Origin: Actinomycetes bacterium
Lineage (GTDB): Bacteria; Actinomycetota; Actinomycetes; DATJPE01
Assembly (NCBI GenBank): GCA_035506535.1
Contig: DATJPE010000033.1
Location: forward strand, 35,506-99,505
Direction of reading: 5' to 3'
Length of the DNA: 64,000 nucleotides
The position numbers and the translations under genes are program-made. Shown one piece after another: positions 754-42,041 of this stretch (position 1 is its first letter; the number at the start of each line of letters is the position of its first letter). Under the pieces are notes generated by a model. That model was not told the origin of the DNA, ran no database searches, and saw nothing but the letters and a program-made list of their open reading frames with translations.

Positions 754-910
754 GTGCCCAGCCTGGCATCCACCAGCACGGACTACCTATCGGCAGGGAT
801 GGCAGCGGAGCGGGCAGTGCCCCGCCACGGTCGGGCGCCCCGTGGCTCTACGCTGATGACTGGAGCCAGGCGGCGAGGACGCGGGCCGGTGCGGAAGGGA
901 ATGCCTAGCG

Positions 911-3214
911 GTGACCATCGCACCTGAGACCCGAGTGGTCGAGTTGTCGGTGGGCGGGATGACCTGCGCCTCCTGCGCGGCCCGTGTGCAGAAGCGGCTG
1001 AACCGGGTCGAAGGGGTGCACGCCGCCGTCAGCTTCGCCAGCGAACGAGCCACGATCCAGGCGCCCTCGGAGCTGAGCGTCGCAGATCTCATCGCCCAGG
1101 TGGAGGCCGCGGGCTACAGCGCGGCGCCGGCGGGCGACTCCTCCGAGGAGGCTGACCACCGACGACTGCTCGACCTGCGGCGCCGGCTGGTCGTCGCGCT
1201 CGTCCTCACGATGCCGCTGGAGAATCTGTGCATCCTGTGGCCGATGGGACTCATCCCGCGGGTCGATCACTGGCAGCTGGTGCTCATCGCCCTGGCCACG
1301 CCGGTGGTGACCTGGTGCGCGTGGCCGTTCCACCGGGCCGCCTGGATCAATGCCCGGCACGGGGCGACCTCCATGGACACCCTGGTCTCCCTGGGCATCA
1401 TCGCCGCCAGCCTGTGGTCCCTCTACGCGATGTTCGCCCTCCCCTTCGACGGGCAGCGAAGCGGCGTCTCGCTGCTCTTCCGCGCGGGTGGCGGGCAGGT
1501 CTATGTCGGTGCCGCGGCTGGTGTCGCCACACTGCTCCTGATCGGCCGAGTCTACGAGGCCGGCGCCCGGCGAAGCGCACGCAGCGCACTTCGTTCGCTC
1601 GCGGCGCTGGGCGCGAAGGAAGCGACACTGCTGCTCCCGGACGACGCCGAACGACGCGTCCCGGCCGCCCTGCTGTCCTCGGGCGACCGCTTCCTCGTCC
1701 GCCCCGGCGAGACGATCGCGACGGACGGCGTGGTTGTCGCCGGATCGGCCGCGATCGACGCCTCGCAGATGACCGGCGAGTCGCGGCCGGTCCACGCGGT
1801 CGAGGGCGACGACGTGCTCGGCGGGACGACCGCTCTGGACGGTCGGCTGGTCATCGAGGCGCTACGTCCGGCAGCGGACAGCCACCTCGCCCAGATGGTC
1901 CACCTGGTCGAGCAGGCGCAGGCCGAGAAGTCCCATGCCCAACGGCTGGCCGACCGGGTGAGCGCGGTCCTCGTCCCTGCCGTCATCGTCGTGGCCGGCC
2001 TCACTCTCGTCGGCTGGCTCGCCCTCGGTGCCTCCACCGCCACCGCGGTGGGGGCCTCCATCGCCGTCCTTGTGGTGGCCTGCCCGTGCGCCCTGGGCCT
2101 CGCCACTCCGACCGCCCTCATGGTCTCAGCGGGCGCTGCCGCCGAGAACGGGGTCTTCGTCAAACGGCAGCAGGCCCTCGAGATGGCCACTGAGATCGAC
2201 ACCGTGGTGCTCGACAAGACGGGCACCGTCACGACGGGGCGTCTCGAGGTCGAAGCGGTGGGGGGCGGAGGGGGCACGAACGGCCCGGACCCCGGCTGGC
2301 TGCGGCTCGCCGGGGCGCTCGAGGCGGGCTCGGAGCATGCCGTGGGGACAGCGATCACGGCGCGAGCGCGTACCGCGTTCGGTAACCTCCCGGAGGTCCA
2401 GGACTTCGAGGCGCACCCGGGTATGGGAGCCACGGGCGCGGTGGAGGGCCACGCCGTCGCCGTGGGGAGCCCCACTTTCGTCGCCTCCCTGATCGGCGCG
2501 AGGGTCGTCGAGCCGATCGTGAGCTCGGTCGCAGCCGAGGAACGCTCGGGTCGGACGGTCGTGCTGGTCGCGGTCGATGGTCGCGTGTGCGGGTATCTCG
2601 CACTGACCGACCAGCTGCGCGACACCGCCGCAGCTGCCGTCACGGATCTCAAGCGCCTCGGTCTGCGCGTGCTCCTGGTCACGGGCGACAACCCCGGCGC
2701 CGCCCAGGGGGCCGCGGACCGGCTTGGCATCGACGAGGTTCGCTCACGTGTCCTCCCTGACGCAAAGGCCGAGCTCGTCCGGTCCCTTCAGGCCGAGGGG
2801 CATCGGGTCTGCTTCGTCGGGGACGGACTCAATGACGGTGCCGCGCTGGCCTGCGCGGACCTGGGCATGGCGATCGGGTCCGGCACCGACCTCGCCATCG
2901 ATGCCGCAGACGTCGTCCTCAGCCGCGACGACCTCGGCGTCGTCTCCACCGCGATCTCGCTGGCCAGGGCGACGGTGCGCACGATCCAGCAGAACCTCCG
3001 CTGGGCCGTCGGGTACAACCTCGTCGCGATCCCGTTCGCGATGCTGGGGTTCCTCAACCCGCTGCTCGCGGGCGCCGCCATGACGACGTCCTCGACCCTG
3101 GTGCTCTGGAACAGCCTGCGCCTGCACGAGCGATTCGCCCCGGCCTCCAACACCTACGCCGCCCGCCTGGCAGCGCTTGCACCGGGCACGGTGCCTGAGG
3201 TCGAAGCTCTCTGA
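911..3214 (+). CDS. copA: Cu(I)-translocating P1B-1 type ATPase
   Basis: N-terminal HMA GMTCASC, TGES, CPCALGLATP, DKTGT, GDGLND, TM YN and MxxSS Cu(I) signature. Confidence 0.93.
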   Translation: MTIAPETRVVELSVGGMTCASCAARVQKRLNRVEGVHAAVSFASERATIQAPSELSVADLIAQVEAAGYSAAPAGDSSEEADHRRLLDLRRRLVVALVLTMPLENLCILWPMGLIPRVDHWQLVLIALATPVVTWCAWPFHRAAWINARHGATSMDTLVSLGIIAASLWSLYAMFALPFDGQRSGVSLLFRAGGGQVYVGAAAGVATLLLIGRVYEAGARRSARSALRSLAALGAKEATLLLPDDAERRVPAALLSSGDRFLVRPGETIATDGVVVAGSAAIDASQMTGESRPVHAVEGDDVLGGTTALDGRLVIEALRPAADSHLAQMVHLVEQAQAEKSHAQRLADRVSAVLVPAVIVVAGLTLVGWLALGASTATAVGASIAVLVVACPCALGLATPTALMVSAGAAAENGVFVKRQQALEMATEIDTVVLDKTGTVTTGRLEVEAVGGGGGTNGPDPGWLRLAGALEAGSEHAVGTAITARARTAFGNLPEVQDFEAHPGMGATGAVEGHAVAVGSPTFVASLIGARVVEPIVSSVAAEERSGRTVVLVAVDGRVCGYLALTDQLRDTAAAAVTDLKRLGLRVLLVTGDNPGAAQGAADRLGIDEVRSRVLPDAKAELVRSLQAEGHRVCFVGDGLNDGAALACADLGMAIGSGTDLAIDAADVVLSRDDLGVVSTAISLARATVRTIQQNLRWAVGYNLVAIPFAMLGFLNPLLAGAAMTTSSTLVLWNSLRLHERFAPASNTYAARLAALAPGTVPEVEAL

Positions 3215-3228
3215 CGCGACGGGGAGCT

Positions 3229-4041
3229 TCACGGACCGGACGCGTGCGCAGCGCGGGTCACCCTCGGGCGGCCGGTGCTGTCGCGGAACTCCGCGTCTGC
3301 CATGGCAGCCAGCCAGTCGGTGACGGCGCCCACCTGGCTGGATGCCCTGACCACCACCGGACACCCGGGACAGGCATGAGGCGAGGGCGTGGAGTTCAGC
3401 ACGCAGCACAGGCTCCGGGCCGGCACCACCACGACAGCACCGTCGTCCGGTCGGCAGTGCAGGTACCGACCCCTGACTCCAGCCCCCAGGGCGCTGGAGA
3501 TCGCCGTCGACGCTTGCTGGAGCCAGTCCAGGTCGTCGCTGCGCCCCGAGGAGCGTGCGGCCCGGAACATGCCGGCGATGGCCGACTCCGCCGCGATCGT
3601 GGCGACCGCCCGTTCGTGGATGCGAGAACCTGCCGTGGTGGACGCGGCGACCGGTCGGAGCAGCCCGCCGATCCACGCGCCGACCGCCTCAGGCCCCGGA
3701 GGGTCATCCACCCGGGCGTCGCGCGCCAGCCAGAGTTCCTGGACCTCACCCACGGAGTCCACCACGAGGCCGAGTTGGTGAACTTGGACCTGGACCCAGA
3801 CCCCGTCCTGGAAGAGCGGTCGTGCCAGAAGTTCGATCACCGCCCAGTTCGCGAGATGCAGCGGTGTCAGCTGCAACGACCGGCGCGACAGGTCGAGGCC
3901 CGACATGCTGGACATGATCCACTCGTAGCCCCGACCGGCCACAATGTCGCCAAGCGTGATCGTGCCTGGCCTCGCGGGACCGATGCCCACCGGCGGAACG
4001 AGTCCCTCCCACGCGGTCACGCCACTGAGGTCACCCGGCAT
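3229..4041 (-). CDS. FhuF-like ferric-siderophore/metal-chelate reductase with [2Fe-2S] motif
   Basis: C-terminal CC-x10-C-x2-C (CCVLNSTPSPHACPGC); overlaps the ABC ATPase stop. Confidence 0.7.
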   Translation of the reverse strand: MPGDLSGVTAWEGLVPPVGIGPARPGTITLGDIVAGRGYEWIMSSMSGLDLSRRSLQLTPLHLANWAVIELLARPLFQDGVWVQVQVHQLGLVVDSVGEVQELWLARDARVDDPPGPEAVGAWIGGLLRPVAASTTAGSRIHERAVATIAAESAIAGMFRAARSSGRSDDLDWLQQASTAISSALGAGVRGRYLHCRPDDGAVVVVPARSLCCVLNSTPSPHACPGCPVVVRASSQVGAVTDWLAAMADAEFRDSTGRPRVTRAAHASGP

Positions 4042-4876
4042 CGGCAGGCCCTCCGCGCTCGAAGATCAGGTGGGGTCGTCCGGTCACGGGGTGCGCTACG
4101 ACATGGGACCTGACCTGGAAGACGCGGTCGATCACCGAGGGGTCCAGGGCGTCCTCGGGGGCGCCGCCGGCGACGATCGCTCCCTCCGCGATGACGTAGA
4201 CCCGGTCGCACCAGGCCCCGGCCAGGTTGAGGTCGTGAAAGGCGGCGATCACGGTCATGCCCAGCGAACGAACGTGGTGAAGCACATCGAGCTGGTAGCG
4301 GATGTCCAGGTGGTTGGTCGGCTCGTCCAGGATCAGCACGCGGGACTCCTGGACCAGCGCTCTGGCGATCAGGGTGCGCTGGCGCTCTCCTCCCGACAAC
4401 TGGTTGAACCGACGATGCGCGAGGTGAGCGAGGCCGAGGGTGTCGAGGGCGGTGAGTACCAGCTCCCGGTCGCGCTCGCCCTCGCGCTCGAAGCCTCGCA
4501 GGTGCGGAAGCCGGCCCAGAGCGGCGACCTCGGCCGCCGTGAAGTCGAAGTCACTCGGCATGTCCTGCGCGACCGCGGCGATGCTCCGCGCGGACTCCCG
4601 GGCGGTGAGCTTCCAGATGTCCTTGTGATCCATCCAGACCGCACCCTCGCTGGGACGGAGGGCGCGGTAGCAGGACCGCAGGACCGTCGTCTTGCCGCTT
4701 CCGTTGGGACCCACCAGTCCGACCATGGCCGCCGCCGGGATGTCCAGGTCCACCCCGTGCGCGATCTCGACGTCACCGATCTCGATGTGCAGTCCCTCGA
4801 TCGACAGCCTTGGGGGGCTGATGGCGCTCAAGGGAGAGGCGCGACCGTCCGCGTCGCCGACGACCCGGCTCATCAC
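4031..4876 (-). CDS. Metal-chelate ABC transporter ATP-binding protein (FecE/BtuD-like)
   Basis: GPNGSGKT Walker A, LSGGERQR signature, LILDEPTNHLD Walker B, FHDLNLA. Confidence 0.92.
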   Translation of the reverse strand: MMSRVVGDADGRASPLSAISPPRLSIEGLHIEIGDVEIAHGVDLDIPAAAMVGLVGPNGSGKTTVLRSCYRALRPSEGAVWMDHKDIWKLTARESARSIAAVAQDMPSDFDFTAAEVAALGRLPHLRGFEREGERDRELVLTALDTLGLAHLAHRRFNQLSGGERQRTLIARALVQESRVLILDEPTNHLDIRYQLDVLHHVRSLGMTVIAAFHDLNLAGAWCDRVYVIAEGAIVAGGAPEDALDPSVIDRVFQVRSHVVAHPVTGRPHLIFERGGPADAG

Positions 4877-5967
4877 CCGTCGATGTCCTGCCGTCGCAGC
4901 AGCCAGAGGAAGAACGGGGCACCGATGATCGCGGTCAGGACGCCGACATTGATCTCGTCCGGTGCGAAGATCACCCGGCCTATCAGGTCCACGGCCATGA
5001 GGTACAGGCCCCCGAGGAGCGCCACGGCGGGCAACAACCGGGTGTGCTCGGCACCGAAGACCATGCGACCGACGTGAGGGACGACGAGGCCGACGAAGCC
5101 GATCGGGCCGACCAGCGATACCACGACCGCCACGGCCAGGGACGTGATGACGAGCAGTCTGATCCTGAGCCGGTCCGGGTCCAGGCCGACCGCGGCGGAG
5201 GTCTCATCCCCCATCGCCAACCCGTTCAGCGACCGGCTGTGGAAGCGCAAGGCGGCGGCGACGAGCGCCAGCATCACGAACGCGACCGGGATCTGGTCCC
5301 ATTGCGCCGAGGCCAGGCTCCCCAGGGTCCACTCCTGCTGCGTCTCGGTGGAGTTGATGTCCGGGTTGAGCGTGCTGAAGAACTCGGTGATACCGGCGAG
5401 GGCGAAGGAGACGGCCACGCCCGCGAGCAGCAGCCGTGTGGAGCTCACCCGGCCACGGCGCCGGGCCAGCGCGAAGACGAGCCCCAAAGTGGCCACCGCG
5501 CCGAGGAAGGCCGCCACGGCCGGTGGGAAGACCCTCGACCCAGTCACGAGTGCGACGTAGAAGACGATCACGACAGCCGCCGACGCACCCGACTCGATCC
5601 CCAGGATGTACGGGTCGGCGATCGGGTTGCGTACCAGCGCCTGGACGGCCACCCCGACCAGGGCGAGCGCCCCACCGACGATGAACCCGAGCGCGACCCT
5701 CGGGGCACGGATGAGCCAGATGATGGAGTCGTCCGGCGAGGCAGTGGTCTTCGCGCCCACGATGTGATGGAAGATGATCGACCAGACCTGGCCCGCGGGG
5801 ACGCGGACCTGCCCGTAGGTCATACCGAGGGTGGCGACCAGGACGGTCAGGAGGGCGACCAGCGCCATCCGGACCGCGTACCGTCGGCGCAGCCTTGCCC
5901 CCTCGTGGCGCGCGGAGTCGACGGGGAGCGCACCGGCGGCGGTCGATGCGATGGACAGAGGGGGCAT
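4873..5967 (-). CDS. FecCD/BtuC-family ABC permease
   Basis: IRAPRV, RNPIADPYILG, LAMGDETSAAVG, GPIGFVGLVVPH. Confidence 0.92.
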   Translation of the reverse strand: MPPLSIASTAAGALPVDSARHEGARLRRRYAVRMALVALLTVLVATLGMTYGQVRVPAGQVWSIIFHHIVGAKTTASPDDSIIWLIRAPRVALGFIVGGALALVGVAVQALVRNPIADPYILGIESGASAAVVIVFYVALVTGSRVFPPAVAAFLGAVATLGLVFALARRRGRVSSTRLLLAGVAVSFALAGITEFFSTLNPDINSTETQQEWTLGSLASAQWDQIPVAFVMLALVAAALRFHSRSLNGLAMGDETSAAVGLDPDRLRIRLLVITSLAVAVVVSLVGPIGFVGLVVPHVGRMVFGAEHTRLLPAVALLGGLYLMAVDLIGRVIFAPDEINVGVLTAIIGAPFFLWLLRRQDIDG

Positions 5968-5980
5968 CAGGCGGCGACCT

Positions 5981-7093
5981 CTACAGCTTGCCTTCGCTCT
6001 TGAGGCGGATGAGGCCGTCCACGAGCAGCCTCACCGCGTCGACGGCACGGGGGGAGCCGGCGGCGGCGAAGTAGGAGATGGGCACGTAGGCCTGGTTCTT
6101 GACGGCCTCGACCGTTCTAAGCTGCGGGTCCGACTGCAGGAAGTGCTCCATCTGGGAGACGGTGAATCCACTGTCGGTGACGAGCCAGAACACGTCCGGA
6201 TCCGTCTTGACCACCTGTTCCCAGCTCACGTTCACGTTGGGATTCGTGTCGTACTCGCGGAAGGCGTACGTCGAGCCGGCCTCAGTGATGATCGCGTTCG
6301 CCGTCGTCACCCCGAGAGTGCCGGGAGAGGATGTCATTCCGTTCGCCTCCCCGATCCGGTAGCTCCCCAGCCCCGCTCTCTTGGCCAGCGCGTGATCCTG
6401 AGCCAGCTGCGCCTGGAGGCTTGCGATCAACGCAGCCGCCCTGGCCTGGACGTTGAAGATGACGCCGAGGTTGCGGATGTCGGAGTAGAGCTGGTTGAAG
6501 TCGTACAGCGGCCGGGAGCTGTACTGACCGCAGTCCGACAGCGTCTCGTAGCTGGCGACTCCCAACGCGTTCCAACGCTGCGGCGTGGCTGGGCCGATGC
6601 CCTTGGTGAAGGCGCTCGGGAAGTCCGAGACGACGATGTCCGGGCGCAACGCCACGATCGACTCCAGCGAGGGGTAGGCGTCCCCATAGCTCAGCCCGCT
6701 CAGGGTGGCGACGACCTGGGCGTCCCGGGACCACTCCTGCTCGGGCGTCTCGAACTTCGTGACCGCCACGATCCTGCTCGTCAGGCCGAGGGCGACCAGC
6801 GTGTCGGTGGCGCTGTCGTCGAGAGTGACGATCCGCTGCGGCGCCGACTGGTAGGTCTGAGTACCGTTGCAGTCTCGCACGGTCACCGGATAGCGAGTCT
6901 GGCTCGAGGGAACGGGCGCCCTCGTCGCCTCCGTGACGCCCACGCTGGACGACTCGTCAGCCCTGCCGGCACCGCAGCCCGCGGACAGCACGGCCAGTCC
7001 GATGACGACGGCTGCCATCCGGATTCCTGGCAGGAGGCGACGGCGAAGGTGCCGATGGCGCCCGACAGACCCCTTCCCCTCCAGCGTCAGCAC
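5981..7093 (-). CDS. Metal-chelate-binding lipoprotein (class III helical-backbone SBP)
   Basis: Lipobox LSAG-C, YPVTVRDCNG..APQRIVTL, SLESIVALRPDIV; GAGGAG RBS before GTG 7093; RRRLL may be a Tat motif. Confidence 0.88.
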   Translation of the reverse strand: MLTLEGKGSVGRHRHLRRRLLPGIRMAAVVIGLAVLSAGCGAGRADESSSVGVTEATRAPVPSSQTRYPVTVRDCNGTQTYQSAPQRIVTLDDSATDTLVALGLTSRIVAVTKFETPEQEWSRDAQVVATLSGLSYGDAYPSLESIVALRPDIVVSDFPSAFTKGIGPATPQRWNALGVASYETLSDCGQYSSRPLYDFNQLYSDIRNLGVIFNVQARAAALIASLQAQLAQDHALAKRAGLGSYRIGEANGMTSSPGTLGVTTANAIITEAGSTYAFREYDTNPNVNVSWEQVVKTDPDVFWLVTDSGFTVSQMEHFLQSDPQLRTVEAVKNQAYVPISYFAAAGSPRAVDAVRLLVDGLIRLKSEGKL

Positions 7094-7136
7094 GGCTGCT
7101 CCTCACATTCGGTTGGGGTCGAGGCATGGGGCCGAT

Positions 7137-7180
7137 CTTCTACATGATGTAGAGGAGACTACCTTCTACATCGTGTAGAG
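7137..7180. promoter_or_regulatory. Two tandem palindromic operators, TCTACATGATGTAGA (7139-7153) and TCTACATCGTGTAGA (7165-7179), with overlapping divergent -10 boxes between them
   Basis: 18-bp direct repeat CTTCTACATnnTGTAGAG with centres 26 bp apart; minus-strand TAGTCT (7161-7156) and plus-strand TACCTT (7160-7165). Confidence 0.75.
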
Positions 7181-7226
7181 CGCTGGCGCCCGCCGCGTCC
7201 CACGTCCACCTCGACGAGGAGTCCCC

Positions 7227-8873
7227 ATGCCGGATGCGCTGCGCGTGAGCCGCATCCTCATGGCGTCGACGGCTCTCGCTGCCGCCTCGCTGGTCCAGGT
7301 CGCGGTCGCGGCTCCGGCGAGTGCACACGCGACCGTCGTGTCCAGCTCCCCCGCCGACGGGGCACGGCTGGCCCGCTCCCCCGCCGACGTCTCGATCACC
7401 TTCGACGAGCCGGTCAGCCTCGGGTCGACCACCTACCTGCGAGTGGTGAACAGCTCGGGCAGGCGCGTCGACTCCTCAGTGGCGTCCCATCCCGGTGGTC
7501 AAGGCCGCGTCGTCGCGGTCACCCTCCGTCCCGACCTTCCGCCAGACGTGTACGTCGCGAGCTGGCGGGTCATCTCCGCCGACTCGCACCCGGTCGCCGG
7601 GACCATCCGCTTCGCGGTCGGTGACGCAGTTCTGACGCCACTCACGACCTCCGTCCAGGTTGTGGACCGGGTGACGAGCACGGCGATGGCGGTCGCCAGG
7701 TTCACCGGCTTCGCCGGGTTGACCCTTCTCGGCGGGCTGTGGGTGGTGCTCGTGAGCTGGCCGGCAGGTCGCCGCGACCGACGGGCGCGTCTGCTCCTCT
7801 GGACCGGCTGGGGACTCGCGCTGGGGGGCACGGTGGGTGCGTTCCTGATGCAGGGTCCCTATGTTGCGGGCTCCGGGGTGGCCACGCTCGTGCGCCCTGA
7901 CGTCCTCAGCTCCACCTTCCACACAGACTACGGTCAGCTGGCCCTCGCTCGCGTGGGCTCACTCGTGGTCCTCGCGCTGGTGATGGACGCCGTGCTGAGA
8001 GGAGCGCCGACCGCCGACCGTTACCCGGCCGCCGTGCTGAGTGCGTGTGCACTCGCCGTCGCCCTGACCTACTCGGGCGCCGGACATCCCCGTACGACCC
8101 CGCCCTCGTGGATGTCAGTCGCCCTCGACTCGGCTCACCTCCTGTCGGTGTGCGCATGGCTCGGCGGTCTGGCCATGCTCGTGGTGGCGGTCCTCCCGAG
8201 ACGGTCCCCCGAACTGGTGACCGTGGTCCTGCCTGCCGTCTCGAACGTGGCGACGGTCGCCGTCGTGGTGATCGCGGTGTCCGGCGCCTATGCAGCCTTC
8301 CGCGGGGTCGGCACGCTGCAGGCGCTGACGTCCACCTATGCCCTTCTCGTCGCGGGCAAGGTCCTGCTCTTCGGCGGGCTCCTGGGCATCGGGGCGTGCA
8401 GCCGAGCCTGTGTCCGCCGCCTGGCGGCGACGAGCCGCCGCCCCGACCGCCTCCGTCACCTGGTGACGGCCGAGCTCAGCGTCGCCACAGTGGTGCTCGC
8501 CCTCACCTCGGTTCTCGTCGCGCAGCCCCGCGGCCCGGAGGCCGTGGCCACCGAACAGTCCCGGCCGGTCTCCGCGCAGGCAACTCTCGGGCCCGGTCGC
8601 TCGGTACGGGTGATAGTCGAACCCGGACGGCACGGCGTGGTCGCCGTGTTCGTCACGGTGACGGGCGAAGTTGCGCGCCGGATCACGGTCGATGCGTCGC
8701 TGCCGCGTCAGGAGCTCGGCCCGATCCCTGTCCCGCTCGTGCCCGACGGCCCACACCGGTACTCAGCCAGCGGTGTCCTGCTGCCCCATGCCGGCGTCTG
8801 GCGATTCACGGTGGTTGTCGGCACCTCGGAGTTCGACGCCACGACCACAGCGGTATCGATCCACCTGCACTGA
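7227..8873 (+). CDS. CopC-CopD fusion copper uptake protein (YcnJ-like)
   Basis: Signal peptide ending ASA-H (HATVVSSSP), WRVISADSHP CopC site, multi-TM CopD domain (HLLSVCAWLGGL), C-terminal extracytoplasmic domain. Confidence 0.9.
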   Translation: MPDALRVSRILMASTALAAASLVQVAVAAPASAHATVVSSSPADGARLARSPADVSITFDEPVSLGSTTYLRVVNSSGRRVDSSVASHPGGQGRVVAVTLRPDLPPDVYVASWRVISADSHPVAGTIRFAVGDAVLTPLTTSVQVVDRVTSTAMAVARFTGFAGLTLLGGLWVVLVSWPAGRRDRRARLLLWTGWGLALGGTVGAFLMQGPYVAGSGVATLVRPDVLSSTFHTDYGQLALARVGSLVVLALVMDAVLRGAPTADRYPAAVLSACALAVALTYSGAGHPRTTPPSWMSVALDSAHLLSVCAWLGGLAMLVVAVLPRRSPELVTVVLPAVSNVATVAVVVIAVSGAYAAFRGVGTLQALTSTYALLVAGKVLLFGGLLGIGACSRACVRRLAATSRRPDRLRHLVTAELSVATVVLALTSVLVAQPRGPEAVATEQSRPVSAQATLGPGRSVRVIVEPGRHGVVAVFVTVTGEVARRITVDASLPRQELGPIPVPLVPDGPHRYSASGVLLPHAGVWRFTVVVGTSEFDATTTAVSIHLH

Positions 8874-8884
8874 AGGGAACCTGC

Positions 8885-9637
8885 ATGATCCACATCACGC
8901 CACGACGTGCTGCTCTCGTCGCCACGATCACGGCCGCGATCGTCGTGCTGCCGGCCGTGGCAGCTTCCGCCCATGTCACGGTCAGCGCGCCCGGAGCGAC
9001 CCAGGGGGGAACCGACCAGGAGATCACGTTCCGGGTACCGGTGGAGAAGGACGTGGACACCGTGGGGCTCAAGGTCGCCCTTCCGACGGATACACCGATC
9101 GCCGACATCCTCGTGGAGCCCGTCCCCGGCTGGACTCACACGGAGAAGACCATCACCTTGAAGACTCCCATCGTCACTGACGACGGCAACATCACCGAGG
9201 CCGTCTCCGAGGTGGACTGGGCAGCCACGCCCGGACACGGCCTGACGCCAGGCGAGTTCGGCGCGTTCACGGTGATCGCCGGCCTGCTGCCGAAGACCCC
9301 GACGTTGACCTTCAAGGCGATCCAGGTCTACGCCGACGGGTCGCAGGTCGACTGGACACAGACTGAAGCTCCGGGGAGCACGGCAGAGCTGGACAACCCG
9401 GCTCCCGTGCTGGCCCTCGCCCCCGCGGCCACGACCAGTGGCTCGACGACGTCCTCCGCGAGCCCGCTGGCATCCGAAGCGGCGTCTTCCGAGGCCTCGA
9501 CCGGAGCGGCTTCCTCCGGCGGCAGCGGGTCCTCCAGCACGTCGACGTGGGCACTGGTGCTCAGCGTTCTCGCCCTGGTCGCAGCGCTCGCCGCACTGGG
9601 GGTGGTGGCCGCCAGGACCCGGGCACGGCGAGCGTGA
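8885..9637 (+). CDS. ycnI: YcnI-family (DUF1775) copper-binding membrane protein
   Basis: ASA-HVTV, FRVPVE, VEPVPGW, FKAIQVYADG..VDW, C-terminal TM; ATG 8885 after AAGGGA. Confidence 0.88.
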   Translation: MIHITPRRAALVATITAAIVVLPAVAASAHVTVSAPGATQGGTDQEITFRVPVEKDVDTVGLKVALPTDTPIADILVEPVPGWTHTEKTITLKTPIVTDDGNITEAVSEVDWAATPGHGLTPGEFGAFTVIAGLLPKTPTLTFKAIQVYADGSQVDWTQTEAPGSTAELDNPAPVLALAPAATTSGSTTSSASPLASEAASSEASTGAASSGGSGSSSTSTWALVLSVLALVAALAALGVVAARTRARRA

Positions 9638-9641
9638 ACCG

Positions 9642-9887
9642 CTAGGAGCGGATCGGGGCCGCCAGGGCGTAGCCCGCCTCGGCGACCGCCTTGGTGAGCT
9701 CCTCGTCGGAGAGGGTGCGACGAGCCCGCACCGTGGCCCGCGAGGGCCGGTCGGCGTCCCCGAGCTCGATGTCGACGGACTCGACCGATCCGATCGCGCC
9801 CAACTCCTCTCGCACCGCCGACACGCAGTGCGAGCACGTCATCCCCGCCACGAGAAGCTCGTAGCGGTTGGCTGCGACGTCGCTCAT
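9642..9887 (-). CDS. copZ: CopZ-like heavy-metal chaperone
   Basis: GMTCSHC, C-terminal AVAEAGY. Confidence 0.88.
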   Translation of the reverse strand: MSDVAANRYELLVAGMTCSHCVSAVREELGAIGSVESVDIELGDADRPSRATVRARRTLSDEELTKAVAEAGYALAAPIRS

Positions 9888-9907
9888 CCGGCTCCTCATC
9901 CTCGGGA

Positions 9908-10600
9908 TCACATGCCGCTCATGCCGTGCATGGACATACTGGCCATCCCGAACTGCATGGCCAGGATCATGTAGCCCATGCCCAGGCTCATCAGCGACAG
10001 GGTCGCGCGCACGACTCGGCTGTCCAGGCGCTCATGATGGCCCTGGCTGACGGCCGGCTCAGTCCGCGCGACCAGCGCCGGCCCGGCCGCCCCCACGGCC
10101 ACGACCGGGCGCGCGGGCAGAGCTGCCCCGGCCTCCGGCTCGGGCCAACCGACTCCCGCCCGCTCGGCGGCGTGGGCGAGCGGGCCGGCGGCCCAGGCGA
10201 TCGCCTCGATCGCGAACCAGGCGGCCAGGACGGTCGACAGCACGGCGTCGCCGTGCTGGGGAATGGCGAACATGTAGGCCATGGCGAGCAGGTCGACCGC
10301 GGTGAGCGGCCAGACCACCGTGCTACGTCGGTGCCGGCGTGCGTCACCGACGACGAGGACCAAGACGCCACACGCGGCGGCGAGGTAGACCACCTCCGGC
10401 AGTGCGGGGCCGACGACCATGGCGCCACCGGGCCAGAACATGTCGATCATGCCAAGGGCCATGAGCACGTGGGTCGCGTGCCACAGGCGCCGTCGCCCGG
10501 CCATCCCCACGCTGTGTCGCAGGTGGACGGCGAGCACCCAGGTGTAAGCAGCGGTCCACAGGAGCGCGGACCACGTGGGGATCCACGAGCTCGCGCTCAT
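9908..10600 (-). CDS. DUF5134-like Met/His-rich membrane protein
   Basis: HATHVLMALGMIDM, DLLAMAYM, LMSLGMGYM, tail MASMSMHGMSGM; upstream of copZ. Confidence 0.7.
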   Translation of the reverse strand: MSASSWIPTWSALLWTAAYTWVLAVHLRHSVGMAGRRRLWHATHVLMALGMIDMFWPGGAMVVGPALPEVVYLAAACGVLVLVVGDARRHRRSTVVWPLTAVDLLAMAYMFAIPQHGDAVLSTVLAAWFAIEAIAWAAGPLAHAAERAGVGWPEPEAGAALPARPVVAVGAAGPALVARTEPAVSQGHHERLDSRVVRATLSLMSLGMGYMILAMQFGMASMSMHGMSGM

Positions 10601-12480: not shown

Positions 12481-14202
12481 TCAGGTGGCGTGCAGGAGCA
12501 GGCGTGCGGAGTATCCGTTCGAGCGGTAGCCGTCGGAGTGGACCACGACACGGTAGGCGTACCAGGTGGCCCGGGGCGGGGTCACCCGGAAGGCGAAGCG
12601 ACCCTCGCTCGAGGTGTGCGTGCTCGCCACGGTGACCCAGGCCCCGCCCTGGCGGACCTGGCGGTCGACGAGCAGTCCCGCCTCGGTCGGGGCGACGCGT
12701 CCCCGCAGCGACACCGGGTGGCCGTGGCGGACCGAGCCGGCGCTGAGCGCCGCCGTGACGGCAAGCCTGACGGTGGAGGAGTTCGGGGCGCTGCTTCCCG
12801 GGTAGTACCACCACGACCCGGACACGAGCAGCCGGTAGGAGCCGTTGGCACGGGGCAGCCGACTGACGGACAGCGTCCCGGTGGCCGACGTGCGGCCGGT
12901 CGCCACCTTCTGCCAGCTCTGCCCGGGCCGTGACCACTGCAGCGTCCACGGCAGGTCGGCGACCGGTGTCCCGCCGGGGCTGCGGACCTTGCCCGAGACG
13001 ATGATCCGGCGCCCGTACGTGGTGTCCCCCGCGTACAGCGAGACGACGGGCGTCCGCTTGGCGACCGACCGGGCGTAGGTGCGCAGCTGGGTGAACTGCC
13101 CAGCACCCTCGTACCCGAGGGCCCACAGCGCCACGCCGGCGAGGTGGTAGCGCGCGACGAGCTCGGTCCGGTCGAGGACCGCGTGGGCGTCGTCGTAGAC
13201 GACCTTGCGGGTGACCGTGCACGCGGCGGCGCTGCCGTCCGCGGCGTGACCGGCATAGACCTTGCGGTAAGTGAACGAGCGCTCGGCGGTCGAGGCGTCC
13301 CAGTGCTTCGTGGCGCCGTACTGGGTCGCCAGCGCCTCTGCCTGGCGCGTGGTCGGCGCCGTTGTGAACGGCATGTTGTCCGTCGGGCACCCGGCCGTCG
13401 AGGAGACCACCCAGTTGCGGCCGTACGCCGGGACACCCAGCTGGATGCGGCCGGCGGGGACCTGGGTCACGGCGTAGGCCACGATCTGGCGCACCCACGA
13501 GATCGGGGCGATCGGCCCGGGCGAGGAGACCGAGTAGTCGTAGGCCATGATGCGCAGCCGGTCGACGTAGGGCGCGATGTCGTGCCAGTCATAGACCCAG
13601 AACCCGCTGGTGTCGCTACGGGCGCTGTCGTAGATGGGCGGGGTGGTGACCGCGAGGGTGCGGCCGGCTCGATGCAACGCGAGAGAGAGCTGGCGGACGA
13701 ACTGCACCCAGGCAGGGCGCGTAGTCGCCCAGGTCGAGCGGCCGTCGTGGAAGGCGAAGCTCTCGTAGTCCAGGTCGATGCCGTCGTAGTCGCCGCGCTC
13801 GGCGAGAGCGACGAGGGCGTGGACCTGGTTGGCCCGAAGCGTGCTCGAGCGCAGGATCGAGGCCATCTTGCCCTTGGGGGTGCCATCGGCGACCGTGGCG
13901 TAGACCCGCAGGTGCGCGGCGTGCGCCTGGGCCACGATGGCCGCCCGCTGGGCATCGGGCACGCGGTCGGAGATGACGGTGCTGCTGAGGGCGGAGTGCC
14001 AGAACCCGCCGACGTCGCTCATCAGGTCCGCGTTGGCCTGCATGCTCGCCACGGCATCGGCCGTGCCCCAGTAGGGCAACCAGCCGCTGACGATCCGGCG
14101 GGGCTGCGCCTGCGCCTGCGCGGGAGCGCTGAGGGAGGAGAGGCCGACCCCGACGAGAACCGCGGCGATGCCCACCGCCAGCGCGCTCTTCAGCGAAGCC
14201 AC
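12481..14202 (-). CDS. Secreted GH18 glycoside hydrolase with C-terminal Ig-like domains
   Basis: Signal peptide, DGIDLDYE catalytic motif, IMAYDY, GVALWALG; GTG 14202 after GGAG. Confidence 0.85.
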   Translation of the reverse strand: MASLKSALAVGIAAVLVGVGLSSLSAPAQAQAQPRRIVSGWLPYWGTADAVASMQANADLMSDVGGFWHSALSSTVISDRVPDAQRAAIVAQAHAAHLRVYATVADGTPKGKMASILRSSTLRANQVHALVALAERGDYDGIDLDYESFAFHDGRSTWATTRPAWVQFVRQLSLALHRAGRTLAVTTPPIYDSARSDTSGFWVYDWHDIAPYVDRLRIMAYDYSVSSPGPIAPISWVRQIVAYAVTQVPAGRIQLGVPAYGRNWVVSSTAGCPTDNMPFTTAPTTRQAEALATQYGATKHWDASTAERSFTYRKVYAGHAADGSAAACTVTRKVVYDDAHAVLDRTELVARYHLAGVALWALGYEGAGQFTQLRTYARSVAKRTPVVSLYAGDTTYGRRIIVSGKVRSPGGTPVADLPWTLQWSRPGQSWQKVATGRTSATGTLSVSRLPRANGSYRLLVSGSWWYYPGSSAPNSSTVRLAVTAALSAGSVRHGHPVSLRGRVAPTEAGLLVDRQVRQGGAWVTVASTHTSSEGRFAFRVTPPRATWYAYRVVVHSDGYRSNGYSARLLLHAT

Positions 14203-14284
14203 TTCATCTCCTCCAGTGCTGGCCGGGCGACCTGTCCGGCCACCTTCCACTGTGACCGCCCTACCCAAGGACAGCCACATCGAA

Positions 14285-39226: not shown

Positions 39227-40783
39227 TCACGCGGCCGCGGCGAGCGCCACGGCCACCATGGCCACCACCAGCAGCGCGAGCGCGAGTGGCCAGACGAAGC
39301 GCAGGTAGCGGTCGTAGCCGACGCGTGCGATCGCCAGACCCCCGACGAGGACGACACTGGTTGGCGACACCATCAGCGTCAGCCCGTGCCCGAGGACCCA
39401 GGCCGTCACGGTCGTCGTCCGGTCGACGCCCGCGAAGTCCGAGAGCGGTGAGAGCAGCGGCATGGCGAGCGTCGCGTGCCCCGAGCTCGACGGGATGAGG
39501 AAGGCGAGCGGGATGTTGATGAGCACCGTCACGGCCGCGAAGACGCCGGCCGACGCGCCACCGACGAGGTGCTCCATCGAGTGCAGGATCGTGTCCAGAG
39601 TCCGGGTGTTGGTCATGATGACCGAGACTCCGCCGGCGAGGAGGACGACCAGTGCCGGGGTCATCATGTCCGCGGCGCCGGCGGCGATGAGCCGGACGAT
39701 CTCCCGCTCGTTCATCCGCGCGACCACGCCGACGACGACCGAGGCGATGAGGAACAGCATCGCCAGCTGCGGGAACCACCAGTTCAGCTCGAACCAGTAC
39801 GGCGTCACGGCGGTCGCGTGCGTCAGGTCGTCCGCCGGACCGGTCGCCGCCCCGAGGATGCTCGACCACGGGATCACCGAGAAGATCATCAGACCGAAGG
39901 CCGCCACGGTGATGCCGAGCACCACCTTCTGGGTGCCGCTCAGGGTCTCGCCTGGGGCGTCGGAGGACTCACCCGTGTGGTCGTCCCAGCCGACGAGCGA
40001 GGCCGCCGGATCCCGGCGCACCCGAGCCGCATAGCGAAGCACCCAGGCGACGGCCAGGCCGGTGATCACCGCCCAGAGGAGCAGCCGAAGGCCGATCCCG
40101 TCGCCTATCGAGACCCGCGCCTCCCCGGAGGCCACCCCGATCGAGAACGGGTTGACGGTCGCTCCCATGACGCCCGCGAGGGCTCCGAGGATGATCATCG
40201 CCGCGGTGACCAGCCGGTCGTAGCCGAGCGCCGCCATCAGCGGGAGGAACAGGGCGTAGAAGCCCAACGTCTCGACCGAGAAGCCCATCGTCGAGCCGAG
40301 CAGTGAGAAGAGCACCATCACCGTGACGATGAGCAGCCAGCCCTTGCTGCGCAGCCGGTGGGCCAGCGCGGCGATCGCCACCTCGAGGCTTCGAGTGGCG
40401 AAGGAGACCGAGATGAACGCTCCGATCGCCATGATGAAGACGATCACCCCGATCTGGCCGAACATCCGCCCGACCGTCTCGGTGTCCACCACGCCGGTGG
40501 CCGGGTTGCGAAGCCCGTACGTGCCGTTGACCGGCGCCAGCAGCAGCTGTTGGACCCGCTCGCCGAAGGTCAGCGGGTTCGGGACCCGGTGGTAGGTCCC
40601 CGGGATCGGCGAGCCGTCCGGGTCGGTGCGATACGCGCCGGCGGGGATGAGAAGAGCGGCGATCCAGACCAGCACGGTGACGATCGCGAGAGTGGTCACC
40701 GCGGAGGGGAAGCTGAAGCCCTTCGCGGGTGCGAACGTCTCGGAACCGTCGCTGTCCTGCGCCTCGGCGGCCGGCGCGGACAT
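39227..40783 (-). CDS. YfcC family (DcuC-like/ArcD2) transporter
   Basis: FSFPSAVT, IPAGAY, NPFSIGVA, PSSSGHA. Confidence 0.88.
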   Translation of the reverse strand: MSAPAAEAQDSDGSETFAPAKGFSFPSAVTTLAIVTVLVWIAALLIPAGAYRTDPDGSPIPGTYHRVPNPLTFGERVQQLLLAPVNGTYGLRNPATGVVDTETVGRMFGQIGVIVFIMAIGAFISVSFATRSLEVAIAALAHRLRSKGWLLIVTVMVLFSLLGSTMGFSVETLGFYALFLPLMAALGYDRLVTAAMIILGALAGVMGATVNPFSIGVASGEARVSIGDGIGLRLLLWAVITGLAVAWVLRYAARVRRDPAASLVGWDDHTGESSDAPGETLSGTQKVVLGITVAAFGLMIFSVIPWSSILGAATGPADDLTHATAVTPYWFELNWWFPQLAMLFLIASVVVGVVARMNEREIVRLIAAGAADMMTPALVVLLAGGVSVIMTNTRTLDTILHSMEHLVGGASAGVFAAVTVLINIPLAFLIPSSSGHATLAMPLLSPLSDFAGVDRTTTVTAWVLGHGLTLMVSPTSVVLVGGLAIARVGYDRYLRFVWPLALALLVVAMVAVALAAAA

Positions 40784-40787
40784 CGCG

Positions 40788-42029
40788 TCAGTAGTCGACC
40801 GGGTCGCGGATGATCGGGCAGGTCATGCAGTGACCGCCGCCACGGCCGCGCCCCAGCTCGGAGCCGACGATGGTGATGACCTCGATGCCCTCCTTGCGCA
40901 ACAGGGTGTTGGCGTAGGTGTTGCGGTCGTAGGCGAACACCACTCCCGGCGAGACCGCCACCAGGTTCGCGCCGCTGTCCCACTGAGTGCGCTCGCGCAG
41001 GTAGTCGCTGCCCCCGGTCTCGACGACGCGCAGCTTCGGCAGGTTGAGCGCACTCGCCACGGTCTCGAGGAACGGCTTCTCCTCCTTGTGCAGCTCGATC
41101 CCTCCGGGCCGGTCAGACGGACGGTAGGAGAACGCCTCGATGCCGAACACGATGTCGGGATAGACCAGGACGCAGTCGCGGTCCGCGAACGTGAAGATCG
41201 TGTCGAGGTGCATGGCCGCGCGCGACTTCGGCATCGCCGCGACGATGACCCGCTCGGCCGCGCCCCGCTCGAAGAGGGCCGCCGCCAGCTGACTGATGCC
41301 CTGCCGGGAGGACCGCTCGCTCATGCCGACCAGCACCGTCTTGTTGCCGATGGGCATGACGTCCCCGCCCTCGAGGGTCGCGCGGCCCCAGTCCCTGGTC
41401 GGGTCGCCCCACCAGACGTTCACCTTGCCGGAGAACTCCGGGTGGAACCGGTAGATCGCCGTGGTGAGGATCGTCTCCTCGTGGCGCGCCGGCCAGAAGA
41501 GCGGGTTCAGCGTGACACCGCCATAGATCCAGCAGGTCGTGTCGCGTGTGTAGAGGGTGTTCGGCAGCGGGGGGAGCAGGTACTCGTTCACCCCCGCCGC
41601 GTCGCGGACCAGGCCGATGGTGTCCCCGCCGTAGGTCTCCGGGAACTCATACGTGGAGAGCCCGCCGATCAGCGTCTCCGCGAGCTCACGGTCGTCGAGC
41701 TGGTCGAGGTAGGCACGGACCTCCTCGACGAGGTCGAGACCGACCTTGTCCGGCACGACCTGCTGGTCGAGGATCCACGCGCGCGCTTCGGGGAGAGCCA
41801 CAGTCTCCGCGAGGAGCGAGTGCATCTCCACGACGTCCACCCCGCGGTCGCGCAGCTTCGCCATGAAGTCGAAGTGGTCACGTTTGGCGTTGTCGACCCA
41901 CATGACGTCGTCGAACAGCAGGTCGTCGCAGTTCGTCGGCGTCAGCCGCTGGTGGGCACGCCCCGGTGCGCACACCATCACCTTGCGAAGCTGGCCGACC
42001 TCCGAATGAACGCCGAACTCCTGGTCCAT
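40788..42029 (-). CDS. arcA: Arginine deiminase
   Basis: [47 protein letters not shown]. Confidence 0.97.
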
Positions 42030-42041
42030 CGATCCACCTTC

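Follow-up and report, generated by a model that had tools for sequence, protein, structure and literature searches.

Comparison of the 64-kb stretch of DNA analysed here (the window) with related loci supports a link between a siderophore-type ABC importer and copper, and the importer appears to be more than a chance neighbour of the copper genes around it. The importer cassette, which includes a gene for a FhuF-like protein, is rare and moves as one unit. Because copper genes also adjoin the related cassettes of other uncultured soil bacteria, the importer probably carries a copper-related chelate.

Gene content of the copper locus

All genes named in the preliminary description were present, intact and correctly placed (Table 1). 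In the NCBIfam profile search the P1B ATPase exceeds the cutoff of TIGR01511 (478 against 397 bits), its translation contains the motifs GMTCASC, CPC, N-x6-YN-x4-P and M-x2-SS (MTTSS), and the gene converges with that of the FhuF-like protein, the two stop codons being 14 nt apart. The CopC-CopD fusion, with more than 1000 homologs named copper transport or resistance protein, has an additional C-terminal extracytoplasmic domain; the mature CopC part has an N-terminal His, and the protein also shows a D-x-H motif. His is also the predicted first mature residue of YcnI (ASA/HVTV), whose family (DUF1775) forms a Cu(II) mono-His-brace (PMC8424229). The genes for CopZ and the DUF5134 protein form one operon, and a PPOX-class F420-type oxidoreductase is encoded at 223-753.

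Table 1 Features of the copper locus in the window
Feature	Position	Strand	Evidence
P1B-1 Cu(I)-translocating P-type ATPase, one N-terminal HMA domain	911-3214	+	Pfam E1-E2_ATPase, Hydrolase, HMA
FhuF-like putative [2Fe-2S] reductase, 270 aa, final importer-operon gene	3229-4041	-	C-terminal C-C-x10-C-x2-C
ABC ATPase, type II importer (FecE/BtuD-class)	4031-4876	-	Pfam ABC_tran 4.7e-31
FecCD/BtuC-family permease	4873-5967	-	Pfam FecCD 1e-90
Class III substrate-binding lipoprotein (SBP), opening gene of importer operon	5981-7093	-	Pfam Peripla_BP_2; lipobox LSAGC
Tandem 15-bp palindromes, SBP/copCD divergent promoter region	7139-7179		TCTACA-N3-TGTAGA twice, 26-nt period
YcnJ-like CopC-CopD fusion	7227-8873	+	Pfam CopC 1.5e-22, CopD 9.4e-13
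YcnI (DUF1775), membrane-anchored	8885-9637	+	Pfam DUF1775 1.6e-33
CopZ-type HMA metallochaperone	9642-9911	-	MTCSHC; NCBIfam CopZ models 8.6e-13; Pfam HMA
DUF5134 membrane protein, Met/His-rich	9908-10600	-	PF17197

The importer operon and its FhuF-like protein

The importer operon runs on the minus strand from 7093 to 3229 in the order SBP, permease, ATPase and FhuF-like protein. Its earlier description as overlapping applies to the last three genes, since the ATPase gene overlaps its two neighbours by 11 and 4 nt, but not to the SBP and permease genes, which are 13 nt apart. Public gene calls start the SBP at an alternative ATG at 7018 (345 aa), which leaves a gap of 208 bp to copCD instead of 133 bp from the GTG start; the longer protein is favoured because an Arg-rich N-terminus is common to the orthologs. 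The SBP clade comprises about 12 proteins with >50% identity among the 1.84 billion proteins searched, and Cys50 and Cys163 are invariant. No ligand is known for the solved SBPs nearest to it (4mlz, 4n01 and 4ljs), and the next nearest bind siderophores or heme. All NCBIfam matches of the permease and the ATPase lie below their cutoffs, the best ones of the ATPase being F420-0, corrinoid, heme and FecE ATPases.

The label FhuF-like holds at the level of the fold and of the cluster motif, but the relationship is remote: in searches of Pfam and NCBIfam not one model reached its threshold, and the FhuF models of Pfam and TIGR miss the protein. The motif CC-x10-C-x2-C is invariant in 38 members of the family, which has 80 representatives among the 1.84 billion proteins. 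For the AF2 model (pLDDT 83.7) the best Foldseek match is E. coli FhuF (7qp5; probability 1.0, E 2e-3, TM 0.40-0.44), followed by the C-domains of IucA/IucC, and FhuF is also the best PDB match of the family profile (E 0.042). Identity to canonical FhuF amounts to about 14%. Judged from this model and the motif, the protein is a putative [2Fe-2S] reductase of FhuF fold from a small undescribed family. The members found of this family and of the SBP clade are all metagenomic and without assigned name.

Relatives of the cassette and their neighbours

The gene order of the cassette is conserved in the loci L001, L004, L007, L016, L017, L033 and L051. Copper genes were present in five of the eight independent close-clade contexts (the window counted), compared to none of the roughly 15 loci where the SBP is a distant homolog with ≤33% identity (Fisher one-sided p ~0.002, drawn from few metagenomic contigs, some of them short). 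The neighbours include genes for DUF5134, P1B ATPase, CopZ, CsoR, a MymT-like metallothionein, PCuAC and YcnI. Besides the window, with P1B ATPase, CopCD, YcnI, CopZ and DUF5134, the copper-positive contexts are L011 (DUF5134, P1B ATPase, PCuAC), L051 (DUF5134, a MymT-like gene and a Ferric_reduct membrane protein), L004 (CopZ and a CsoR with the Cu(I) ligand set C-H-C) and the P0018 contig, where ycnI lies immediately 3' of the FhuF-like gene. DUF5134 adjoins the cassette in L011, L051 and L017, and its occurrence next to the cassette extends to a Chloroflexota genome. No copper genes were seen in L006 and L007, nor in L001, where the neighbours are NicO, a Fur-family gene and another FecBCD system.

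The adjacency to copCD-ycnI, and with it the full arrangement, is confined to the genome of the window; among the relatives, ycnI lies by the cassette in one contig and copCD in none. Neither the window nor the flanks of any relative contain chalkophore or siderophore biosynthesis genes.

Regulation of the cassette

The SBP/copCD gap had been described as containing a tandem palindrome, without an IdeR/DtxR box or a cobalamin riboswitch. Our scan of the gap for boxes of IdeR, Fur, Zur, Nur and CsoR, which detected none, and the Rfam search, with zero matches in the window at gathering threshold, agree with this. The palindrome copies, TCTACATGATGTAGA at 7139-7153 and TCTACATCGTGTAGA at 7165-7179, repeat with a period of 26 nt. 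The tandem was found once in the 64 kb, at a chance expectation of 0.13-0.21 matches even with 1-2 mismatches, it does not match the CsoR, IdeR, Zur, Fur or Nur consensus, and none of the 55 other loci searched, related ones included, contains it. We presume that it is the operator of this promoter region.

In four relatives (L001, L004, L011, L051) CsoR-type operators are located directly upstream of the SBP gene; the CsoR box consensus is TAC-N9-GTA with G-tracts (PMC3902906). These boxes are equalled in at most 2 of 200 shuffles, and a box of the same type precedes the DUF5134-P1B operon of L011 and the mymT-like gene of L051, while the box upstream of the L055 P1B ATPase served as positive control. 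The SBP promoters of the window and the relatives contain no IdeR, DmdR, Fur, Zur or Nur box, and neither a cobalamin riboswitch nor any other Rfam match was obtained for the window or six relatives. From the CsoR-type operators the cassette is predicted to be de-repressed when cytosolic Cu(I) is high, i.e. in a copper-excess response, instead of the acquisition during copper starvation that the preliminary description had implied.

Proposed function of the importer

Tentatively, and with a probability that we place somewhat under one half, we propose that the importer captures and takes up a copper chelate and that the FhuF-like protein frees Cu(I) for the copper-handling proteins. The SBP lipoprotein, FecCD/BtuC-class permease, ATPase and cytoplasmic FhuF-fold [2Fe-2S] reductase would constitute a self-contained uptake cassette. 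Outside the membrane, in the compartment that is also the site of Cu(II) handling by CopC, YcnI and PCuAC, the SBP would bind an organic copper chelate, probably a chalkophore from other organisms since no biosynthesis genes are nearby. The ABC transporter would bring the complex inside, where the FhuF-like protein may reduce or destabilise it, so that Cu(I) is freed. CopZ would accept the Cu(I), which the adjacent P1B-1 ATPase would export or route to cuproenzymes; in relatives the MymT-like metallothionein may be another acceptor. There, Cu(I) would also release CsoR and increase expression of the cassette, and uptake would be part of a copper-stress or copper-trafficking response, not of starvation. 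In the window the unique tandem palindrome would take the place of the CsoR sites, and its position in the promoter common to SBP and copCD-ycnI would imply co-regulation of both uptake routes by one repressor.

The copper gene context, the CsoR-type boxes of the relatives, an ECF sigma/anti-sigma pair orthologous to that of copCD-ycnI-PCuAC-sco operons, the missing iron-regulator boxes and riboswitches, the FhuF fold and the precedent of Cu-SF2768 import speak for Cu(II)-chelate uptake with reductive release as originally suggested, but a Cu chelate and an iron siderophore as cargo are not distinguishable from sequence. Against a copper chelate, nothing in the sequence points to the ligand, all evidence is comparative, none of the contexts contains genes for chalkophore biosynthesis, the promoter of the window lacks CsoR boxes, and the cassette lies beside Fur-family, NicO and FecBCD genes in L001 and apart from copper genes in L006 and L007. 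To our knowledge FhuF is known solely as ferric-siderophore reductase, and induction by CsoR at high copper is counter-intuitive for a copper importer.

Such induction would better suit an iron rescue during copper stress, in which a ferric (xeno)siderophore would be the cargo and the FhuF-like protein, acting as FhuF does, would reduce the Fe(III)-siderophore. An excess of Cu(I) damages Fe–S clusters and raises the iron demand, and the copper regulon would for this reason have taken over control from the iron regulator. Characterised members of all four protein families serve ferric-siderophore uptake, iron-uptake genes are induced by copper stress in Bacillus subtilis and E. coli, and in L001 a Fur-family gene and another FecBCD system lie beside the cassette. 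However, every promoter lacks an IdeR, DmdR or Fur box, seven of the eight contexts are without siderophore biosynthesis or other iron genes, and the partners that recur are not Fe–S repair genes but DUF5134 and proteins that handle Cu(II) outside the cytoplasm. The FhuF-like family is also distant from canonical FhuF, as its low identity and missing Pfam match indicate. We consider iron rescue somewhat less probable than the uptake of a copper chelate.

It is improbable that the cargo is a Ni/Co chelate, corrinoid, heme or F420 precursor, with the copper genes as co-members of mixed metal islands. In NCBIfam, each of the three transporter parts has its best matches among putative F420-0 and corrinoid ABC families, Streptomyces plasmid homologs with ~30% identity occur in cobalt/corrinoid contexts, and genes such as NicO and the Fur-family regulator in L001, CobW in L016 and the PPOX-class oxidoreductase in the window would fit. 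Yet the NCBIfam scores are far below the cutoff (e.g. 130 bits vs 392), heme-degradation genes are absent, and both the missing cobalamin riboswitch and the Cu(I) ligands of the L004 CsoR argue against such a cargo; since families linked to F420 abound in Actinomycetota, proximity to an F420 gene says little.

An ordinary importer without functional tie to copper, inserted as a mobile cassette in a variable region that gathers metal genes, is the least probable reading, as the differing neighbours from genome to genome, the IS elements and remnants of group II introns that border the L007 cassette and the copCD-ycnI adjacency in a single genome are set against copper genes in close but not in distant contexts, copper-type operators that lie directly in the promoter of the cassette itself in four of its relatives and the repeated adjacency of DUF5134 across phyla.

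Comparison with known systems

A siderophore-type ABC importer for a copper chalkophore is already known, namely that of Cu-SF2768 encoded by sfa orf19-21 of Streptomyces thioluteus (Wang et al. 2017, reviewed in PMC13500777), and the locus would be a variation on this kind of importer. Both systems have an actinobacterial FecB-like SBP, a permease and an ATPase with proposed copper-chelate uptake. According to the published description, sfa orf19-21 lie inside a diisonitrile NRPS cluster and a FhuF-like reductase is not reported, whereas the cassette is an orphan without biosynthesis genes that has its own FhuF-fold gene, copper-homeostasis neighbours and, in relatives, CsoR-type operators. 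Homologs of the sfa transporter are also present in strains not making the chalkophore (PMC13500777), which suggests piracy; those of Orf19 are confined to Streptomyces (PMC13500777).

With E. coli FhuBCD/FecBCDE and FhuF the cassette shares the transporter class and, in its reductase, the fold and the cluster motif C-C-x10-C-x2-C, but it has no iron-regulator box, and its context and regulation relate to copper rather than iron. As in the CsoR/RicR regulons (Streptomyces lividans copZA; M. tuberculosis ricR-mymT-lpqS-mmcO), relatives of the cassette possess TAC-N9-GTA operators with G-tracts and adjoin CsoR, CopZ, P1B ATPase and MymT-like genes, whereas the window promoter is without CsoR boxes; in the literature on these regulons we found no FecCD-class importer described. 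The window resembles ycnKJI of Bacillus subtilis in that ycnI, with the N-terminal His of the Cu(II) site, follows the gene of a YcnJ-like CopC-CopD fusion, but it has no YcnK regulator gene, and ycnKJI has no ABC importer partner. The YcnK site is reportedly a 16-bp direct repeat, in contrast to the tandem inverted repeat that is the operator candidate of the window.

The CopCD and YcnI proteins have orthologs with ~50% identity in copCD-ycnI-PCuAC-sco operons of Actinomycetota, such as the Streptomyces sco operon. These orthologs are usually grouped with PCuAC, Sco, MauE-thioredoxin and an ECF sigma/anti-sigma pair and without ABC importer, while in the window all of these partners are absent and the ABC cassette occupies the divergent position. 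The ECF sigma/anti-sigma pair that adjoins the cassette in its relatives is an ortholog of the pair adjoining these operons, and this family is common to both neighbourhoods.

Gene content of the copper locus

The genes listed in the preliminary description for positions 911-10600 match exactly the coding content that we obtained by Pfam, NCBIfam and translation (table below). The window DNA is actinobacterial with a high GC content (about 70%), and mycothiol S-transferase, PIG-L/MshB-like and PPOX/F420-type genes are found elsewhere in it. An identical locus is present on a second public contig, where gene calls and Pfam assignments agree, including PF17197 (DUF5134). On that contig the locus is flanked by ordinary core genes, with pncA, pncB, clpS, mec and cysO at one end and genes for a class V aminotransferase and a GH18 protein at the opposite end. 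The aminotransferase was rejected as a conserved neighbour, the copies of the window and of the comparator locus L008 being only 25% identical.

The translated P1B-1 ATPase shows CPC in TM4, N-x6-YN-x4-P in TM5 and M-x2-SS in TM6 and thus, with its HMA domain and TIGR01511 score, all features looked for in a P1B-1 Cu(I) ATPase. No CsoR box precedes its gene in the window; an imperfect inverted repeat of 13 nt (CGCCCCGTGGCTC / GAGCCAGGCGGCG) lies upstream. CopCD is followed by the DUF1775 protein YcnI, and the predicted mature N-termini are H-ATVV (CopC) and H-VTVS (YcnI). The locus therefore shares the CopC-CopD fusion and the N-terminal-His DUF1775 protein with YcnKJI-type loci, but lacks an adjoining YcnK-type repressor (DeoR HTH with copper binding), as neither the 1-16 kb region nor any of 10 small ORFs from the window contains such a regulator gene.

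Features of the copper locus and of the loci of relatives and comparators
Feature	Locus	Position	Strand	Remarks
Imperfect inverted repeat	window	836-875		upstream of P1B ATPase gene
P1B-1 Cu(I) ATPase	window	911-3214	+	HMA domain; TIGR01511 above cutoff
Importer operon: Peripla_BP_2 lipoprotein, FecCD permease, ABC ATPase, 270-aa protein	window	7093-3229	-	
copCD	window	7227-8873	+	YcnJ-like CopC-CopD fusion
ycnI	window	8885-9637	+	DUF1775
copZ	window	9642-9911	-	
DUF5134 gene	window	9908-10600	-	PF17197
GH18 protein	window	12481-14280		599 aa
Arginine deiminase region	window	39227-43574		
DUF5134 gene	L011	4374-5174		
DUF5134 gene	L051	1061-1633		
DUF5134 gene	L017	13813-14556		
Ferric_reduct membrane protein	L051	137-1033	+	PF01794
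CsoR-type boxes	L051	2245-2305		three boxes
Cys-rich protein	L051	2401-2568	+	55 aa
Conserved block	L001	5726-5863		
Conserved block	L004	9873-10008		
Conserved block	L007	9865-10008		
Conserved block	L011	8498-8633		
Conserved block	L051	2866-3001		
ECF sigma/ZAS-type anti-sigma pair	L004	6897-8413		
ECF sigma/ZAS-type anti-sigma pair	L006	8289-9719		
ECF sigma/ZAS-type anti-sigma pair	L011	751-2856		
ECF sigma/ZAS-type anti-sigma pair	L051	1621-2109		
ECF sigma/ZAS-type anti-sigma pair	L052	3605-4902		
ECF sigma/ZAS-type anti-sigma pair	L053	6623-7935		
CobW GTPase	L016	649-1956		
Fused binding protein	L016	4899-6779		627 aa
HMA-DJ-1/PfpI fusion protein	L016	13915-14793		
Integrase and transposase genes	L007	1400-9400		
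Group II intron domain matches	L007	3184-3261, 7866-7965		
tRNA-Sec gene	L001	15905-15996		

An intact importer with a FhuF-like fourth gene

The genes of the importer cassette are adjacent or overlapping, the final three by 4 and 11 nt. Together with the Pfam matches (E-values of 1e-90 for FecCD, 4.7e-31 for ABC_tran and 9.2e-17 for Peripla_BP_2), this arrangement shows that the cassette is an intact type II ABC importer of the FecCD/BtuCD class with a class III substrate-binding protein (SBP). The SBP translation contains the lipobox LAVLSAGC with a Cys that is invariant across the clade, in agreement with anchoring in a monoderm cell. A ligand could not be read from the SBP structure, since the AF2 model is mediocre (pLDDT 64.7) and its nearest structural neighbours come without known ligand.

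The fourth gene encodes a 270-aa protein with the FhuF-type [2Fe-2S] motif C-C-x10-C-x2-C at its C-terminus (CCVLNSTPSPHACPGC), which is invariant or nearly so among 38 family members. No Pfam or NCBIfam model, PF06276/PF11575 and TIGR03951 included, matched the window protein at threshold; TIGR03951 scored 13 bits (E 0.06), where its cutoff is 64. Over the 38 members, Pfam returned one match each for FhuF (0.015) and FhuF_C (0.062). Foldseek searches with the AlphaFold model (pLDDT 83.7) retrieved E. coli FhuF (7qp5) as best PDB match, with a probability of 1.0 and an E-value of 2e-3 at a TM score of only 0.40-0.44 and an rmsd of 7 Å, followed by the FhuF-like C-domains of IucA and IucC. A family profile searched against the PDB also ranked FhuF first (E 0.042). 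Cluster motif, predicted structure and profile ranking together point to the FhuF fold, in which the protein would form a separate and distant branch. With 80 representatives in 1.84 billion clusters, the family is very small; none of 72,556 plasmids contains a match, and the members carry either no name or the annotation 'hypothetical protein'.

Distribution of the cassette and its copper neighbours

The SBP clade is rare, with 12 proteins of >50% identity, every one of them from a metagenome of peat, wetland or soil. Identity reaches at most 47% among GTDB species representatives, and no plasmid match exceeds 33%. In every locus with sufficient DNA the order SBP-permease-ATPase-FhuF-like is kept, including a Caldilineaceae MAG and the loci L016 and L033, where SBP identity is down to 40-47%. 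Unusual genes flank the distant copy in L016: one encodes a binding protein in which a ZnuA-like part is fused to a Peripla_BP_2 domain, another a protein that joins HMA and DJ-1/PfpI domains, and the third a CobW GTPase.

In the window, the cassette is accompanied by genes for the P1B ATPase, CopCD, YcnI, CopZ and DUF5134. Among the relatives, L011 contains ECF sigma, anti-sigma, DUF5134, a small Met-rich peptide, P1B ATPase and PCuAC genes; L004 genes for CopZ, a CsoR whose ligand set for Cu(I) is C-H-C, anti-sigma, ECF sigma and VKOR; and L051 a Ferric_reduct membrane protein, DUF5134, ECF sigma and a Cys-rich gene. The P0018 contig carries ECF sigmas, a fragmented transporter and a FhuF-like gene with ycnI directly downstream. 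The cassette lies next to ECF sigma, anti-sigma, MauE and thioredoxin genes in L006, next to a Fur-family gene, NicO and a second FecBCD system in L001, and next to IS elements and group II intron remnants in L007. Copper-homeostasis genes thus occur in five of eight independent close-clade contexts and are missing from all of the roughly 15 independent loci whose SBPs show at most 33% identity (Fisher one-sided p about 0.002, calculated by hand). The synteny of the SBP clade with copper genes holds for those five contexts; copCD-ycnI orthologs elsewhere have no ABC neighbour.

DUF5134 is a Met/His-rich membrane protein whose gene recurs near the cassette in Actinomycetota and also, two genes downstream of the FhuF-like gene, in a MAG of Chloroflexota (L017), and is also found in operons with CopZ or the P1B ATPase. 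The Ferric_reduct protein of L051, which has a Met-rich N-terminal stretch and adjoins DUF5134, possibly reduces cupric or ferric ions at the membrane.

Regulatory sequences in the relatives

Two to four copies of the 17-mer ATACCC-N5-GGGTAT precede the SBP gene in L001, L004, L011 and L051/L028. The CsoR operator of Streptomyces is ATATACCCCTNAGGGGTATAT, with a TAC-N9-GTA core and G-tracts (PMC3902906). In their match to this operator the 17-mer sites outscore at least 198 of 200 shuffles, and in L001, L004, L011 and L051 they qualify as CsoR-type boxes. Such boxes also precede the DUF5134-P1B ATPase operon of L011; L055, an unrelated locus that serves as positive control, has the box immediately before its P1B ATPase gene. 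In L051, from an uncultured soil actinomycete, three of them stand before the gene for a Cys-rich protein (…LTCTHEDCNCRVLIQAECHCPG…CACG…), which we take to resemble the mycobacterial metallothionein MymT. The RicR-regulon paper describes mymT as confined to pathogenic mycobacteria.

The ~135 nt from the last box to the SBP start form a conserved block that carries GGCACGGGTAT, GCAGTTCA and GTCAAGTAGCGTTCTCCCGCT and a candidate ECF-type promoter (GGAAT-N16-GTC). A riboswitch or structured leader was rejected for this block, as it shows no conserved fold (-2.7 kcal/mol) and no Rfam match. In L004, L006, L011 and L051 an ECF sigma/anti-sigma pair adjoins the cassette, while in other genomes the pair adjoins copCD-ycnI-PCuAC-sco-mauE/trx operons. 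In Jatrophihabitantaceae-type MAGs, copCD-ycnI-PCuAC-(sco)-mauE/thioredoxin operons have such a pair beside them, with which the cassette-side factors share 47-59% (sigma) and, in local alignments, about 40-50% (anti-sigma) identity. The anti-sigma factors have a His-rich membrane motif (H-x-x-H-E) in common, and the pair is a candidate copper-sensing sigma system.

The shared promoter region of the window

In the window, cassette and copCD-ycnI have their promoter region in common. The divergent gap of 133 bp with a tandem palindrome was found as previously described if the SBP starts at a GTG, which is favoured by an Arg-rich N-terminus common to the orthologs. The gap carries two 15-bp palindromes (TCTACA-N3-TGTAGA), 26 nt apart, that are unique in the 64 kb and absent from all 55 other loci examined and from the copCD ortholog loci. 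In our own reading they are similar to the CopY/BlaI box TACA-N2-TGTA, but with a spacer of 3 nt. Between the palindromes, an 11-nt spacer contains the TAnnnT hexamers TACCTT (plus) and TAGTCT (minus); if these serve as promoter elements, one repressor could block both divergent promoters. A strict sigma-70 scan gave no hit.

No IdeR, Fur, Zur, Nur or CsoR box scored better than shuffles in the gap, the best match to the CsoR operator (TAC-N9-GTA with G-tracts) having 7 mismatches, and no Rfam family reached its gathering threshold in the window or in six relatives. Box scan and Rfam search therefore bear out the earlier statement that the gap contains neither an IdeR/DtxR box nor a cobalamin riboswitch. 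Among 10 of the small ORFs in the window there is no metalloregulator that could bind the palindrome, and homologs of CsoR, MymT, the ECF sigma and the anti-sigma factor are absent from the window. Since copCD-ycnI orthologs elsewhere have neither the palindrome nor an ABC neighbour, the full arrangement emphasized before, though present in the window, is limited to one genome and is a rearrangement that joined two normally separate copper-linked modules.

Cargo and proposed mechanism

Copper entry into the cytoplasm of Gram-positive and other monoderm bacteria is poorly understood. To our knowledge, experimental support for a chalkophore ABC importer is confined to the one for SF2768, and we know of no enzyme that releases copper from an imported chelate. 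NRPS or isonitrile genes were found neither in the 64-kb window nor in the flanks of the relatives. In this the cassette differs from the sfa orf19-21 type, which sits in or by the isonitrile NRPS cluster. The precedent comes from Streptomyces thioluteus, in which a siderophore-like ABC transporter imports Cu-SF2768; Orf19 homologs are reported to occur only in Streptomyces (PMC13500777). As metallophore ABC importers, including a chalkophore one, are already known, the cassette is a variant and not a new category. New are the dedicated protein family of putative FhuF fold, undescribed so far, the recurring links to CsoR, DUF5134 and ECF sigma, and the orphan status without biosynthesis genes nearby.

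We infer that an organic metal chelate is taken up by the cassette and that its handling is linked to copper status. The likeliest single cargo is a copper chelate made by other organisms, though we would put it at somewhat less than even chances. The FecB-like SBP and the transporter would take up the Cu(II) chelate, likely as piracy of the chalkophores of others, and the putative FhuF-fold [2Fe-2S] protein would act as cupric-chelate reductase, freeing Cu(I) for CopZ, metallothionein and the P1B ATPase. CsoR and/or the putative copper-sensing ECF sigma/anti-sigma pair would control the whole system, with DUF5134 as membrane partner. The complete model, an undescribed copper-regulated cassette for import and release with all these components, is put forward only tentatively.

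The main difficulty for import of a copper chelate is the CsoR-type control. It implies expression at high Cu(I), which fits a role in stress or trafficking better than starvation-driven acquisition. CopD, YcnJ, CopC and CopZ of Frankia are reported to be copper-induced (PMC4531530), and for M. tuberculosis an ABC system for copper influx, itself induced by copper, has been claimed (PMC13202654), which makes copper-induced uptake less odd. The strongest rival is a ferric-siderophore importer that the copper-stress regulon has taken over to meet iron demand. It would suit expression under copper stress; for the IdeR/DtxR iron box TTAGGTTAGGCTAACCTAA, neither the window nor six relatives gave a match that surpassed shuffles, the best ones having 8-10 mismatches, and we regard this explanation as possible but doubtful.

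Ni/Co chelates, corrinoids, heme or F420-0 are improbable cargoes. Scores for the putative F420-0 ABC models TIGR03868/03869/03873 were 130, 231 and 262 bits, where 392, 437 and 372 are required, and with 26 bits against a cutoff of 234 the window SBP stays below the equivalog level of the BtuF model. The nearest cultured SBP homologs (about 29-30% identity), on the Streptomyces linear plasmids NZ_CP109366 and NZ_CP108138 (L056, L057), adjoin CbtA/CbtB, methylmalonyl-CoA mutase/MeaB or adenosylcobinamide amidohydrolase genes and probably belong to corrinoid or cobalt systems. These cobalt/corrinoid contexts at 30% identity were set aside as uninformative for the SBP clade. Chance adjacency of cassette and copper genes is unlikely; the association with copper genes and copper-type operators is non-random. 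All of these findings come from about a dozen metagenomic contigs.

If the cassette does combine chalkophore import with a FhuF-fold reductase, it would represent the first known pairing of importer and reductase for copper chelates, and DUF5134 would acquire a function. Import of a copper chelate would constitute a second, wider-spread uptake route independent of chalkophore production, i.e. piracy in soils and peat, assign a non-iron function to a new FhuF-fold branch, and tie DUF5134 and the conserved ECF sigma/anti-sigma pair to copper trafficking. Import of iron under CsoR control would instead provide a direct genetic link from copper stress to iron acquisition.

Additional features of the loci

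In L007, the stretch immediately upstream of the cassette contains three integrase genes, several transposase genes and two group II intron domain matches, which suggests a mobile or recombination-prone region. The actinomycete contig L001 carries a tRNA-Sec gene with SelA and AIRS (SelD-like) genes nearby, implying that this genome uses selenocysteine. Unrelated to the cassette, the window also encodes a secreted GH18 protein whose C-terminus is extended by a long stretch and, further downstream, an arginine deiminase together with an amino-acid permease and a carrier of the DcuC type.
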